A stretch of 64,000 nucleotides of DNA, taken from the IMG/VR virus record IMGVR_UViG_3300028186_000155, one strand, 5' to 3'. A model generated the notes under the pieces. The model was not told the origin of the DNA. It was given only the letters and a program-made list of their open reading frames with translations, and ran no database searches. Shown one piece after another: positions 32,858-36,725 of this stretch; positions within the stretch are counted from its first letter, which is position 1, and each line of letters opens with the position of its first letter. The position numbers and the translations under genes are program-made. Source of the DNA: a virus (lineage: Duplodnaviria > Caudoviricetes).

Positions 32858-34834
32858 TTAGCGGAACAGTTTCAAGCCTTGCAGCTTGCTTTGGAAGTTG
32901 GAAGGTTGCGACTGCTGCGCCGAAGCGGTTGCGAGTTCGCTTTCCTGTTTTTGCACTTGTGCAGGAGTTTGCACCGGACGGCCCATCGACATTGCCGAAG
33001 ACGCGGTAGCAACCACATTTTTCGGTTCGATTTGGGTTACAGCGACCGCCATCTGATTCTGAATTACTTCGTCGTATTTCAGGATCTCACCAGCTTTAGC
33101 CAGAATGGCAGCGTGGTATTCCGGCGAGTTTTCGATGAATGCGCGTTGCAGCATTTCTTCCGCGCCCTGAATGCCGATGGATTCCAGCGAACTGGCCAAA
33201 GCGGTCATGATCGGGTTTTGCGTATCGCGGAAATAACCGGTATTGATACCGTGCGCGGCGGTGGCCAGTGCGCGGTTCATACGGTCGCCCAGCGTTTGCT
33301 GGTCACGGGCGCTGGCTTCGGCCAGTTGGGTGCCTTGATCGGCTACTTGAGTAGCGATTTGTTCGGCCACAACTTGATCGATTTGCAGAACCGGTTTGAT
33401 TTCTTCGAAACGCAGTTGAGTCAGCGCGGCTTGCACACCTTGTTCCGAGGCAACGGCAGTGAAAGCACGGCCAAACGACGGATCAGCGAAAGTGGCAGGG
33501 TTTTCCGAAGCCGATGCAACAGCTTTTGCGAAAGGAATGCCGTTGTGGAATGCCATCCAAGTAGGTTCGCCTTGAACGTTACCTACATAATTAACATCAA
33601 CAGATTTTCCTTTCATGTCGTTGGCTGCGATGGAAACGAAAGAGGCTTGGATTTCCACCGGGGCCGCTTCGGTTTGCTGTGCAGTTTGTTCGACATTTGC
33701 AGTTTCCACGTTGGTGGTTTCTGCGGCGCCGGTTTGTTCAGCGTTGGCAACGGCAGTTTCCTGTACGTTGGCAGCTGTTTGTTCGGCGTTTTCGGTTTGT
33801 TCTTGAGTTTCTTGCTCGGTCGCGCTGGCGGTAGCCATTTCTGGTTTTACCTTTTTACGAACGCCACCTTTTTTCGCTGGTTTGTCAGCGGCGGCGAGGC
33901 CCAAAGACAGGTCATCGTCGTCCTCTTCTTCGAGGTCGTCGTCTTCCTCTTCTTCCTCTTCGTCGTCTTCCTCTTCGTCGTCTTCAGATTCTTCATCTTC
34001 GTCGTCGAATTCTTCGTCGTCTTCTTCCTCTTCTTCATCATCGGAGGCAGTAGCGGCGAAATCAGCAGAAGCAACAGCTTTTTGTTCATCGCTGAACTCT
34101 TCTTCAGGATCTACAAGACCCATCGAAGTTACAGGGCAGAAAATTGCCTTGTCGCTGTTGGAGACGATGTGCATTTCCGGGCCGTCATCGCTGGCAGTTA
34201 CCAGATAATGCACTTTCAGTTTGCCGTTTTCGGCGCTGGAAGCTACGGCCAGTTGTGGCACATAGTTTTCAACGGCTTCAGCAGCGGTTGCACGGAAAAT
34301 GTCGAAGTTCACAGGCTGGTTCGAAACCACCGTGTGATCAACGCATTGTGCGGCGAAAGTCTCGCAGTTACCGCTGGCCAGTGCGCGGAAAGCTTCGATA
34401 GCTTCAGCACGCGTGGCAGCAACAGCAACCAGCATTTCTTTCGGTTGTGGTTTGTTTTTCAAGTCGGCGTCTTCCATTTTGGGGAGGTCGGAAGCGCAAG
34501 CCGGGCATTTATCCAACAGTTCAATACTGTCTGCGATAACGTGAGCGCCGCAACCCGAGGAACAAGCCTGATAGAATGCGTCCATATCGCCATCGGCGGA
34601 TGCGGTCGCTACCATTTCGTGCTTTTCGTCTTCCGGCACGGCCACCATTTCTTCCCCGTCAACGGGGTTCAATAGTTGCATATCGGTGTTGGCGGTAGCG
34701 ATGGCAAATTCACCATCCTTGCTTTCCAAAACACGATATTCGCCGGAAGCAACGGCACTGAATTGCTCTACTGCTTGCTCTTGGTTGTCAGCCATAACGA
34801 CGATGCCGCGCAGGCGCGAATTTCGTTTCGACAT
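32858..34834 (-). CDS. Prohead scaffold / core-like protein
   Basis: Upstream of the capsid genes; long acidic tract; helical C-terminus; many A-x-A-S sites. Confidence 0.65.
   Translation of the reverse strand: MSKRNSRLRGIVVMADNQEQAVEQFSAVASGEYRVLESKDGEFAIATANTDMQLLNPVDGEEMVAVPEDEKHEMVATASADGDMDAFYQACSSGCGAHVIADSIELLDKCPACASDLPKMEDADLKNKPQPKEMLVAVAATRAEAIEAFRALASGNCETFAAQCVDHTVVSNQPVNFDIFRATAAEAVENYVPQLAVASSAENGKLKVHYLVTASDDGPEMHIVSNSDKAIFCPVTSMGLVDPEEEFSDEQKAVASADFAATASDDEEEEEDDEEFDDEDEESEDDEEEDDEEEEEEDDDLEEEDDDDLSLGLAAADKPAKKGGVRKKVKPEMATASATEQETQEQTENAEQTAANVQETAVANAEQTGAAETTNVETANVEQTAQQTEAAPVEIQASFVSIAANDMKGKSVDVNYVGNVQGEPTWMAFHNGIPFAKAVASASENPATFADPSFGRAFTAVASEQGVQAALTQLRFEEIKPVLQIDQVVAEQIATQVADQGTQLAEASARDQQTLGDRMNRALATAAHGINTGYFRDTQNPIMTALASSLESIGIQGAEEMLQRAFIENSPEYHAAILAKAGEILKYDEVIQNQMAVAVTQIEPKNVVATASSAMSMGRPVQTPAQVQKQESELATASAQQSQPSNFQSKLQGLKLFR
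33910..34045 (-). repeat. Low-complexity GAA/GAC tract encoding poly-D/E
   Basis: DDEEEEEDDEEFDDEDEESEDDEEEDDEEEEEEDDDLEEEDDDD. Confidence 0.85.
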
Positions 34835-34896: not shown

Positions 34897-35259
34897 TTAC
34901 AGCAATTTCAGCAGCAGCCCACGGACCTTCCGGCAAATGGCCTGCACCGAATGGTGTGCCGTATAACCTTCATAATTCGTGAGTTCGCCATTAATATTCG
35001 TTTCACCCTCATACCACCAATTCGTTTCTTCGCGGGTAAACCGAATAAATCCCGAACCCATATCAGAAACAAAATCGACGCGAGCGCTGTGATGCGGTTT
35101 GCCGTCCCCTTCTACGTCGTATTCAACCTTGCATTTGATCAGACCCTTTCGGATTTCTTGGATGCTGAACAAATGGTGCTTGAGCGACAATGGATCAAAG
35201 GTTTTAGGCAGATGCATTTCAGTTAATGGCGAGGCTGCTAAAGCAATCATCATTTCCAT
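34897..35259 (-). CDS. Putative inner-head protein (MIALAAS N-terminus)
   Basis: AGGAG RBS, TAATTT at 35286-35291, shared N-terminal tag. Confidence 0.7.
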   Translation of the reverse strand: MEMMIALAASPLTEMHLPKTFDPLSLKHHLFSIQEIRKGLIKCKVEYDVEGDGKPHHSARVDFVSDMGSGFIRFTREETNWWYEGETNINGELTNYEGYTAHHSVQAICRKVRGLLLKLL

Positions 35260-35311
35260 AGCAGTCTCCTTGGAGCTACAGGTTTAAATTAGGGCAAACA
35301 GAAATTTTGGG

Positions 35312-35353
35312 CAAAAAAAAGCCCACTCAGGCGGGGGAACCTGAATGGGCTTA
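35312..35353 (-). terminator. Rho-independent terminator
   Basis: AAGCCCATTCAGG...CCTGAGTGGGC followed by TTTTTTTT. Confidence 0.85.
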
Positions 35354-35407
35354 AATGCTGTGACATAAAGAGATAAAGCTAGCCTACCCTCGTAGACTAT
35401 GAATAAA

Positions 35408-35677
35408 TTAGCGACCTTTTACAAACTGCATATCCAGCACGAATGCTTCGTTTGCCGCCTGTTCGGCCAAAGTCAATTGGCCTTGGGTACGGCGTGGATT
35501 GCAGCACATAAAGCAGCCCGAACGCCCGCAATTAAATGCATTGCGTTTTGCCCACTTATTGGAGGGCTTAATACGGTCAGATGCGTGCGGATAGTTATTC
35601 CAATCTTTCACGTGCTTTGCAATCACGCGATTACGATTAGAAATACGCTGCTGTTTCGCCAGTTTATCAAACGACAT
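35408..35677 (-). CDS. Small basic Cys-cluster protein
   Basis: CGRSGCFMCCNPRR motif; GAGG RBS. Confidence 0.7.
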   Translation of the reverse strand: MSFDKLAKQQRISNRNRVIAKHVKDWNNYPHASDRIKPSNKWAKRNAFNCGRSGCFMCCNPRRTQGQLTLAEQAANEAFVLDMQFVKGR

Positions 35678-35682
35678 GATGT

Positions 35683-35736
35683 AGCCTCTACAGCGATGCC
35701 CGCCCCGGTATTGGAACGGGCTATCGTGTGTAGGCT
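35683..35736 (-). promoter_or_regulatory. Long hairpin covering the RBS of 35408..35677
   Basis: AGCCTACA..CGAT.GCCCGTTCC / GGGGCGGGC.ATCG.TGTAG.AGGCT. Confidence 0.6.
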
Positions 35737-35763
35737 TTAAATGTCTGGACGTTCGTCATTCAT
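35737..35763 (-). CDS. Candidate 8-aa micropeptide MNDERPDI
   Basis: AAGGTG RBS, then ATG AAT GAC GAA CGT CCA GAC ATT TAA. Confidence 0.45.
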   Translation of the reverse strand: MNDERPDI

Positions 35764-35773
35764 AAAACACCTT

Positions 35774-35902
35774 TTAGATATCGGGGCGAACGTCTTTTGG
35801 TGTGGCAATCACGCCAACGCCCGGACCCTGTTTGATACCGAGTTTCTCAGCACGTTCGCGGGCGGCTTTTGCTTTGCGATACATGATCAGAATTTCAGCC
35901 AT
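35774..35902 (-). CDS. 42-aa basic peptide ending KDVRPDI
   Basis: AGGGA RBS, start at MAEILI, 14 nt after the protease stop. Confidence 0.6.
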   Translation of the reverse strand: MAEILIMYRKAKAARERAEKLGIKQGPGVGVIATPKDVRPDI

Positions 35903-35915
35903 TTTGTGTTCCCTG

Positions 35916-36725
35916 CTAGATGGATTTTGGATCAAGGATAATATCCCCGATTGCGCTAACATACGACGGATCACCGTAGCCCTGTTTGTAGCCGTCAACG
36001 CCCGAACGCCCACCCACATATTCCAGCAACGACAATTCGTAACCGGTAATGTTTTGGCAGCGACGATAAACCAGATTGCCATTAGGCATTTGATACGTTG
36101 GTTTGCGCGGGCGAGTGTGCGAACACGGATTGCCAACGCCTTTACCGGCCACATGGCCGCAAACCGAACAGGTATAACGGTTGTACAGCATGCCCATGGA
36201 ATAGGTATTCAAAACCCGATCCAAAACCAATTGGCAACGCTTAGGATCAAGGGTGCGATCCAGTGCCCCGAGCATTACCAGTTTTTGAATGTTTTTAAAC
36301 CGGGTTGGGCGCAGGTACGAACCGAGAATCAGACCACGAACCCATTCAGGTTGGTGCTGGTGCTCAACGTACATTGGGCGGCCTTCCCACGTTTTGTATG
36401 CGAGCCGTCCGCACGGTTCATTCCACGCAGTGAATTGCTTCAAATCTACCGAATCCCCGTTGGTATTGGGAATCATGGTGATCATTGCAGGAACCGCCAC
36501 CAGAATATAATCGCTGATATTCTTGGACAAACCGTGGTATTCCGCTGCACGTGGCAACCACACATTCGCTTCCAAGTTTTCAGCTTGATCAGTACCAGAA
36601 ATCGAAGCACTGATAGGCAATTGCCCGGCTTCGTTTAGGCGTGCACCGTGTAGCTCAGTGGTGATCGGCGTCCCCATATTGAACGCCGTGGCCACATAGT
36701 CATTGCCGTAAATGTCTTCGATCAT
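35916..36725 (-). CDS. Putative prohead maturation protease with Zn-finger insert
   Basis: N.NGD, GRPMYVEH (candidate catalytic His), TYSMG (candidate Ser), CSVCG...CSH, ELS; upstream of scaffold and capsid. Confidence 0.65.
   Translation of the reverse strand: MIEDIYGNDYVATAFNMGTPITTELHGARLNEAGQLPISASISGTDQAENLEANVWLPRAAEYHGLSKNISDYILVAVPAMITMIPNTNGDSVDLKQFTAWNEPCGRLAYKTWEGRPMYVEHQHQPEWVRGLILGSYLRPTRFKNIQKLVMLGALDRTLDPKRCQLVLDRVLNTYSMGMLYNRYTCSVCGHVAGKGVGNPCSHTRPRKPTYQMPNGNLVYRRCQNITGYELSLLEYVGGRSGVDGYKQGYGDPSYVSAIGDIILDPKSI

Follow-up and report, generated by a model that had tools for sequence, protein, structure and literature searches.

A conserved leader hairpin, an overlapping short ORF and twin RPDI peptides downstream of the prohead protease gene of a Lu11-like jumbo phage

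Results

We analyzed a window of 64,000 nucleotides (nt) from IMG/VR record IMGVR_UViG_3300028186_000155 – part of a 113-kb viral contig – and within it the stretch that separates the prohead protease gene from a gene for a small basic Cys-cluster protein of 89 amino acids (aa). At this locus nucleotide identity to the Pseudomonas jumbo phages HRDY3 and Lu11 is 81% and 69%, respectively: the source of the window is a Lu11/HRDY3-like jumbo phage. The stretch would be the translational leader of the 89-aa gene, which belongs to protein family phrog_4499 and is the last cistron after the prohead protease in Lu11-like jumbo phages. With a little more confidence than doubt, we read it as a hairpin-gated gene that is unmasked by translation of a short upstream open reading frame (uORF), accompanied by two micro-ORFs, ending in Arg-Pro-Asp-Ile and a stop codon (RPDI-stop), that are detached modules of an acidic protein tail. 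The hairpin, the RPDI ORFs, the 89-aa gene and the terminator that follows it all lie on the minus strand, and coordinates are those of the window. The elements are as follows.

35774..35902, minus strand: 42-aa ORF with C-terminus DVRPDI-stop; an annotated coding sequence (CDS) in HRDY3; basic N-terminal helix, Gly-rich middle, acidic C-terminal hexapeptide
35768..35773, minus strand: Shine-Dalgarno sequence AAGGTG, directly after the stop of the 42-aa ORF and common to two nested starts
35737..35763, minus strand: mini-ORF a, MNDERPDI-stop, 8 aa, 10 nt (AAGGTG plus TTTT) after the 42-aa ORF
35721..35759, minus strand: uORF b, 12 codons, MTNVQTFKAYTR followed by a stop, in the +1 frame relative to mini-ORF a; its UAG stop (35723-35721) falls in the hairpin internal loop
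35741..35745, minus strand: GACAU, the 5' strand of the outermost helix, which pairs with AUGUC (35677-35673) at the start of the 89-aa gene
35683..35736, minus strand: leader hairpin of 54 nt, starting one base after the stop of mini-ORF a
35685..35688, minus strand: GAGG, the Shine-Dalgarno sequence of the 89-aa gene, within the 3' arm of the hairpin
35408..35677, minus strand: gene for the 89-aa basic Cys-cluster protein, with its ATG at 35677 (phrog_4499, E = 2.1e-14)

A conserved hairpin precedes the Cys-cluster gene

The hairpin is built of an inner stem of 9 bp (35721-35713 with 35706-35698, closing a loop at 35712-35707), a middle stem (35726-35723 with 35697-35694) and an outer stem (35736-35732 with 35687-35683). 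The 141-nt stretch that contains it folds at -49.2 kcal/mol (z = -5.8), a stability that none of 200 shuffled sequences attained. The initial annotation had placed the GAGG ribosome-binding site (RBS) of a small basic Cys-cluster gene in the 3' arm of this hairpin: that placement holds, and the stem is conserved. It is kept in 15 sequences from at least nine lineages, including some with unrelated gene neighborhoods. The same stem-loop, 46-49 nt before the start codon, is also found in PhiPA3 (L038), in phiKZ and three of its relatives, in DT01 and in four metagenomic contigs, and on the latter contigs the family gene lies amid genes for RNA ligase, thymidylate synthase or acetyltransferase, not head genes. 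Covariation of the stem in relatives, proposed at the outset as a check, is evident: four pairs show compensatory change and none of 500 shuffles reaches the covariation score. The inner stem is 99% paired across the alignment, and pairing stands at 86% against 30-53% in slid controls. Loop and internal-loop sequences are conserved beyond the needs of pairing.

A covariance model of the hairpin (R1) finds exactly one copy per genome, and a nut/boxB-like multi-site system was rejected for this reason. When 35200-36000 was scanned against Rfam 15 with cmscan (E up to 1) there was no match to the hairpin, the only hits being weak, sub-threshold ones on the terminator; no alternative anti-structure to the hairpin was found. 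On these comparative grounds we regard the hairpin as the leader element of the phrog_4499 gene family.

As in the attenuators of the erm and cat genes, the hairpin is predicted to sequester the Shine-Dalgarno sequence or the start codon by pairing, and its stem is backed by covariation. The mean predicted unpaired probability of the Shine-Dalgarno region (positions -15 to -5) is 0.27 in the window, with a range of 0.04-0.40 across 14 folded leaders. The arm bearing GAGG is, however, not the outermost layer, and here the initial annotation needs correction: the GACAU/AUGUC helix lies further out. One strand of this helix, GACAU(UU), is made up of the D-I-stop codons of the RPDI ORF next to the stem, and the other, (AA)AUGUC, includes the main start; the start codon has a predicted probability of 0.00-0.07 of being unpaired in each of the window, HRDY3, L004, L006 and Lu11. 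In five genomes the hairpin-proximal copy has the segment GACATTTAA without a single nucleotide change; because this segment is both invariant and paired with the main start, its nine bases are also under constraint as RNA. According to the predicted structure, a ribosome finishing either small ORF would open the outer helix, which keeps part of the picture drawn in the initial annotation alive.

A short ORF enters the stem in every sequence

To find ORFs that read into the hairpin, reading frames were anchored on the stem and ATG-initiated ORFs entering the 5' arm were counted in the 15 sequences. The +1 frame holds such an ORF in 15 of 15, phiKZ included, compared to 0 and 1 of 15 in the two other frames. 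In most sequences a clear Shine-Dalgarno sequence stands upstream, so that – as in erm and cat leaders – the ORF is a short one with an RBS of its own. In the window its start lies 4 nt after that of mini-ORF a, with AAGGTG 4 nt from the ATG of mini-ORF a and 8 nt from the ATG of uORF b; the same Shine-Dalgarno and nested starts recur in HRDY3 and L004. Where the uORF ends depends on the lineage: in DT01 and the Lu11 clade its stop is a UAG or UAA within the internal loop, and elsewhere the frame stays open across the stem and past the main start codon. Spacing also respects the frame: indels upstream of the stem are all multiples of 3, and distances from the D-I-stop motif to the stem (16, 19, 25, 25, 25 and 28 nt) are all 1 mod 3. 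In L003 a G-to-A change keeps the uORF stop (TAG to TAA) despite breaking a base pair.

The peptide encoded by uORF b is variable, changes that are silent in the RPDI frame being missense in frame b, and nothing like the conserved arrest peptide of erm and cat leaders is present. Mini-ORF a is kept in HRDY3 and L004 with three substitutions, each of them silent in frame a but amino acid-changing in the +1 frame: from these overlap substitutions we infer that the uORF b peptide is not under selection. Given that the peptide is not conserved, it is the act of translation that would matter, not the product. The conserved ORF placed to open the stem is thus, judging from frame conservation, most likely uORF b and not the RPDI mini-ORF. 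This alters one half of the leader-peptide switch first suggested for the locus: a hairpin that buries the RBS and a short upstream ORF positioned to melt it were both found, but the key ORF appears to be uORF b, the RPDI mini-ORF being absent from L003, L006, L007, L025 and the outgroups. A bypass in the style of T4 gene 60, with take-off at ATT and landing at the ATC ahead of the main ATG, was also considered and rejected: the landing codon is not conserved.

Selection on the RPDI peptides

The initial annotation described a 42-aa ORF ending DVRPDI-stop and, 10 nt on and with an AAGGTG RBS, an 8-aa ORF reading MNDERPDI-stop, both downstream of the protease gene; every detail of this proved correct. 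The 42-aa ORF ends GAC GTT CGC CCC GAT ATC TAA and mini-ORF a reads ATG AAT GAC GAA CGT CCA GAC ATT TAA, the R-P-D-I codons of the two copies differing at third positions only (CGC/CGT, CCC/CCA, GAT/GAC, ATC/ATT). The motif is rare. A six-frame search of the 113-kb contig gives RPDI-stop twice, each time at this locus. Three whole relatives (280-314 kb) likewise have two matches each, and no more, to the pattern CGNCCNGAYATHTAA, all of them here; the reversed-pattern control gave zero.

The synonymous differences had initially been taken to indicate selection on the peptide, and a wider codon comparison agrees. The hexapeptide was compared in 11 copies, drawn from the window, HRDY3, L003, L004, Lu11, L009 and one outgroup. 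At the five fixed codons (D, R, P, D and I; the V/E position was set aside) variable sites are all third positions and changes are all synonymous: at least seven changes, every one silent, compared to the 22% expected to be silent for random changes (P ~ 3e-5). Since the variation is entirely synonymous, selection would have acted on the peptide rather than on the DNA, and at the codon level purifying selection on the RPDI peptide is well supported.

Conservation of the motif in relatives, a second expectation from the outset, is borne out only in part: L003 has a single RPDI ORF, and L006, L007 and L025 have none. L003 is the closest relative by the 89-aa protein, yet it has only a 13-aa RPDI ORF and no RPDI mini-ORF beside the stem. 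In L004 the first copy is a separate 13-aa ORF (MKTKEWSDVRPDI and a stop) behind a 45-aa ORF ending ...REEDWL-stop; in Lu11 one copy ends a 72-aa ORF and the other is a 10-codon overlapping ORF 200 nt upstream. L006 has only a relic, GGCATTTAA, and L007 and L025 have a different small ORF that lacks RPDI. The hairpin and the 89-aa gene are retained in L003, L004, Lu11, L006, L007 and L025 alike, and in the outgroups (phiKZ, PhiPA3, DT01 and the four metagenomic contigs) the hairpin is present without an upstream RPDI ORF. Homologues of the 42-aa ORF in L003 and L004 end ...REEDW[I/L]-stop instead of RPDI. Gene calls on 18 contigs include an identical 42-aa protein, which was also the sole result of a search with the 42-aa product; a scan of genome contigs for relatives returned none.

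Two arrangements peculiar to individual genomes were also seen. At L003:2160-2403 and L004:2224-2399 the micro-ORFs form chains through ATGA stop-start overlaps (...REEDWI-stop, MSDPIKREEEWV-stop, MKTKEWSDVRPDI-stop), in which the R-E-E-D codons of the preceding ORF encode the Shine-Dalgarno sequence of the next (GAGGAAGA). In the window (35749-35787, minus strand) GACGTTCG, from the first RPDI copy, and CGAACGTC, from the second, are exact reverse complements, which predicts an 8-bp stem around the start of the mini-ORF in this genome only; as a conserved feature this helix between the twin copies was rejected, HRDY3 and L004 not having kept it.

Acidic tips, fused and detached

Homologues of the 89-aa protein provide a context for the RPDI ORFs. 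In its nearest outgroup homologues the C-terminus is extended by modules that also make up the small ORFs at this locus. P0007 ends ...GADDERPDI-stop; DERPDI comprises the same six residues as in mini-ORF a, and 19 of 21 bases are identical. P0025 has the C-terminus ...IGCEEI...REEDWI-stop, and P0004 and P0011 end ...DEYDGI-stop. The small ORF of L003 matches the tail of P0025 (BLASTP E = 2e-4). These homologue tails are Gly-rich, and that of P0007 is predicted to be coil (pLDDT 56-61). In P0007, P0004, P0011 and P0025 a Gly-rich linker, predicted to be disordered, leads to an acidic, hydrophobic-ended free C-terminus, an arrangement comparable to the tip of single-stranded DNA-binding protein (SSB).

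Detachment is not confined to the upstream side. In all four phiKZ-like genomes read – phiKZ, PA7, PhiPizzaParty and AttikonH10 (L041:1426-1830, L043, L044, L045) – the stop of the gene (TAA or TGA) is followed, after one codon and thus 3 nt on, by an in-frame 8-aa ORF, M[H/Y]EEYEAI-stop, with GAGGAT in the last codons of the gene; among the four copies there are two synonymous changes and one H/Y change. By clade, then, acidic Ile-ended tips are found fused, detached upstream or detached downstream, as read from the sequences, and we read the RPDI ORFs as detached tail modules. The idea of a free peptide with a common C-terminal motif gains indirect support from the DERPDI end of the fused tail.

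A word search with the P0007 tail gave no match but the tail itself. Another idea, that of an upstream paralogue whose truncated end is now the 42-aa ORF, was rejected: the profile comparison was negative, and a suggestive MAFFT alignment is not evidence. At L027:4320-4420 a 26-codon ORF in the +1 frame (MNVQT...) overlaps the stop of P0007 and carries more acidic modules (...DEYDGI...DEHDDL-stop), as if tail modules duplicated and moved from frame to frame.

The Cys-cluster protein

The 89-aa protein contains 17 Lys and Arg, 6 Asp and Glu, and 4 Cys. Its residues 1-77 align with positions 1-75 of the 88 in the phrog_4499 profile, placing it in that family. According to PHROGs, which assigns the family no function, phrog_4499 includes PHIKZ238.1 and PhiPA3 gp279; nothing on a leader, a uORF or tail peptides is in the record. 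An exhaustive profile search gathered 184 clusters, in which C50, C55, C58, N60, R62 and E72 are invariant, and tblastn finds the family gene in 54 cultured Pseudomonas jumbo phages. We found no literature on PHIKZ238.1 (gp238.1).

The AlphaFold2 model of the protein is helical (pLDDT 89.7). There was no match in Pfam or NCBIfam or in a sequence search of the Protein Data Bank (PDB), Foldseek of the model against the PDB gave nothing at E <= 0.001, and a wide structure search (VIA) gave a best Z of 3.9, on single helices, with no informative fold match: no fold or family of RNA-binding proteins was matched in these searches. Prediction of a complex between the 89-aa protein and the product of the 42-aa ORF gave a score of 0.02 (mark 0.32), values that speak neither for nor against an interaction.

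The deposited start of PHIKZ238.1 (L041:1426-1503) is upstream of the leader hairpin, which the annotated ORF consequently traverses. A start at the ATG 75 nt downstream (MSSNK...) is favored by the family alignment and by the Shine-Dalgarno sequence.

A model and its alternatives

According to our model a multi-tier stem would bury the Shine-Dalgarno sequence of the 89-aa gene, and in this clade the outermost helix would bury the AUG as well. Served by the same AAGGTG as mini-ORF a, uORF b (35759-35721) would be translated into the 5' arm, with termination at the internal-loop UAG. A ribosome reading it would unwind the stem and free the RBS, and the Cys-cluster protein would be made only when the uORF is read: the logic would be the classical one of coupled translation, in which a ribosome unfolds the structure ahead of it. 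With starts only 4 nt apart, mini-ORF a and uORF b may compete for their one Shine-Dalgarno sequence, and start choice may therefore also set the number of ribosomes that enter the stem. The two D-x-R-P-D-I-stop ORFs would also be translated and kept by selection on the peptide, without being the general key to the hairpin. They would represent detached copies of the acidic, hydrophobic-ended tail that in sister phages is fused via a Gly-rich disordered linker. Probably the hexapeptide is a C-terminal tip that docks onto a partner – either the basic domain of the Cys-cluster protein or a third protein – and it would here be supplied both on a 42-aa carrier and as a free octapeptide.

Several points weigh against this reading. 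We infer translation of uORF b, mini-ORF a and the 42-aa ORF, as well as melting of the stem and any binding by the peptides, from sequence. The argument that uORF b is real is the conservation of its frame, and where the outgroup uORF runs over the main start it could repress rather than activate. Conservation of the proximal RPDI copy appears to be partly RNA-level and not wholly peptide-driven, because GACATTTAA beside the stem is also constrained as RNA. As regards the tails, the likeness on which homology is argued is one of short motifs: the 42-aa ORF of the window gives no BLASTP alignment with P0007, and profile comparison of the small-ORF alignment with the Cys-cluster family gave no match. 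Free peptides of 8 residues that act in trans have, to our knowledge, little precedent; we consider it doubtful that the octapeptides (MNDERPDI, upstream, in Lu11-like phages; M[H/Y]EEYEAI, downstream, in phiKZ-like phages) are free, directly translated tips of a small protein of nucleic-acid-binding-like character that act in this way, for example by docking with or competing for the partner of the tip.

The initial annotation offered, as one of two ideas, a leader-peptide switch in which a terminating or stalled ribosome melts the stem. In a fuller form of this idea a nascent D-x-R-P-D-I chain would stall or slow termination at UAA, and the ribosome so held would melt the stem or sense a ligand, thereby switching on the Cys-cluster gene; at the upstream copy the stalled ribosome would sit on the Shine-Dalgarno sequence of the mini-ORF and gate the mini-ORF. 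Stalling would make sense of the placing of the motif, which is always the extreme C-terminus before UAA (in ORFs of 8, 10, 13, 42, 72 or 115 aa), of the Shine-Dalgarno sequence within 0-4 nt after each upstream RPDI stop, and of the last codons of the proximal copy, which make up the 5' side of the AUG-burying helix; the stop moreover abuts the stem in the window and in Lu11. However, L003 has the hairpin without a proximal RPDI ORF, and L006, L007, L025 and all outgroups have it without any upstream RPDI ORF. In HRDY3 and L004 about 6 nt lie between the stop and the base of the stem, a distance too great for a terminating ribosome to open more than a little of it, and in P0007 the motif ends a 115-aa protein that is followed by a terminator, with no hairpin there to operate. 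Related tails also differ (DEYDGI, REEDWI, EEYEAI), which fits a docking tip better than an arrest motif specific to the ribosomal tunnel. Taking both sides together we think stalling quite improbable.

Two further explanations were weighed. The hairpin might mainly be a protein operator, with the Cys-cluster protein binding its own leader stem-loop to repress or (like Com of phage Mu) activate its own translation and the uORF secondary. The element is indeed a single-copy hairpin that accompanies the gene family through unrelated genome contexts, with loops conserved in excess of pairing needs, and the product is small, strongly basic and marked by an invariant three-Cys cluster. Yet the protein matches no RNA-binding protein in fold or family, and an operator leaves the conservation of a stem-entering ORF in 15 of 15 sequences unexplained; we judge it unlikely as the main explanation, and it is compatible with uORF-driven unmasking as an added layer rather than an alternative. 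The RPDI micro-ORFs, for their part, could be decaying remnants of a duplicated or rearranged tail region that no longer serve a function, alike through common descent, with RNA pairing the only thing that keeps the proximal copy. The region is very fluid, with modules gained, lost, fused and frame-shifted among close relatives; L006 keeps just the GGCATTTAA relic, and GACATTTAA does pair with the main start region. Remnants would nevertheless gather missense and frameshift changes, whereas variation at the D, R, P, D and I codons is all synonymous in the 11 copies, including distal copies that lie outside the helix, and decay is accordingly the account that we find very hard to credit.

Comparison with known systems

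Attenuation of erm and cat genes (ermC, ermB, cat86) offers a close parallel: a short leader ORF with its own Shine-Dalgarno sequence, a hairpin over the downstream Shine-Dalgarno sequence, and a leader ribosome that opens the hairpin. There, a conserved arrest peptide and an antibiotic hold the ribosome at a fixed codon, whereas here the stem-entering ORF, with no conserved peptide, runs into the stem and either stops in the internal loop or passes through. With no arrest peptide, and an ORF that simply runs into the stem, the arrangement looks like constitutive coupling and not sensing. In RNA phage MS2 (coat to replicase or lysis) and in many bacterial operons a downstream start is likewise masked by upstream pairing and exposed by upstream translation; the upstream cistron is in our case a dedicated 12-codon uORF rather than a full gene, and the element moves with one family across unrelated phages. 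The Com protein of Mu and the mom stem also combine a small phage Cys-cluster protein with an RBS-occluding stem. The target of Com, however, is a different gene (mom), and Com is a four-Cys zinc-finger protein, whereas the stem described here precedes the protein's own gene, the invariant Cys number three, and no likeness in sequence or fold was found.

For the tails the relevant comparison is SSB, in which acidic C-terminal tips (...DDDIPF in Escherichia coli SSB; also T7 gp2.5) are borne on Gly-rich disordered linkers. The fused homologues resemble this – by a functional analogy drawn from general knowledge – in having a basic folded domain, a Gly-rich linker of low model confidence and an acidic, hydrophobic-ended tip, and in both cases the motif is defined by its free C-terminal position. 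They differ from SSB in having no sequence relation to it and no OB fold, and in that micro-ORFs of 8-42 codons encode the tip on its own as well; we know of no SSB tip that is encoded in this way.

The hairpin and its overlapping uORF would be an undescribed structured leader of a family present in at least 54 cultured Pseudomonas jumbo phages, phiKZ and PhiPA3 among them. Genetics, transcriptomics and ribosome-association data exist for those phages, making the coupling directly testable. The RPDI ORFs suggest that the C-terminal tail motifs of a protein family can also be encoded on their own, in micro-ORFs of 8-42 codons that are clearly under purifying selection and that gene callers miss. 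If the peptides act in trans, phage gene products can be functional at a smaller size than the present lower limit: the peptides would rank with the shortest functional ones that ribosomes make in bacteria or phages, and would show a protein motif that has become a micro-gene of its own.

The surrounding transcription unit

All genes in the examined part of the window are on the minus strand, and no sigma-70-like promoter was found between the protease gene and the terminator. The two features that flank the leader and its gene are as follows.

35916..36725, minus strand: prohead (head maturation) protease gene, 269 aa (phrog_18299, E = 1e-91; head maturation protease in the HRDY3 record)
35309..35352, minus strand: strong intrinsic terminator, a 14-bp stem (35352-35319) followed by eight T, which closes the transcription unit

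The terminator has the expected G+C-rich stem and T run, and is conserved in HRDY3 and Lu11. Right after it, a block of about 33 nt (35275-35307, minus strand; AATTTCTGTTTGCC.TAATTTA.AC.TGTAGC) is near-identical in the window, HRDY3 and Lu11. This block precedes the AAGGAG of the next gene (34897-35259) and is a candidate phage-specific promoter. Further along, a 658-aa protein (32858-34834, minus strand) contains a long Asp/Glu tract; labeled an 'ATPase' in PHROGs and in the Lu11 and HRDY3 records, and annotated as two CDS in HRDY3, it occupies the position expected of a scaffold protein.

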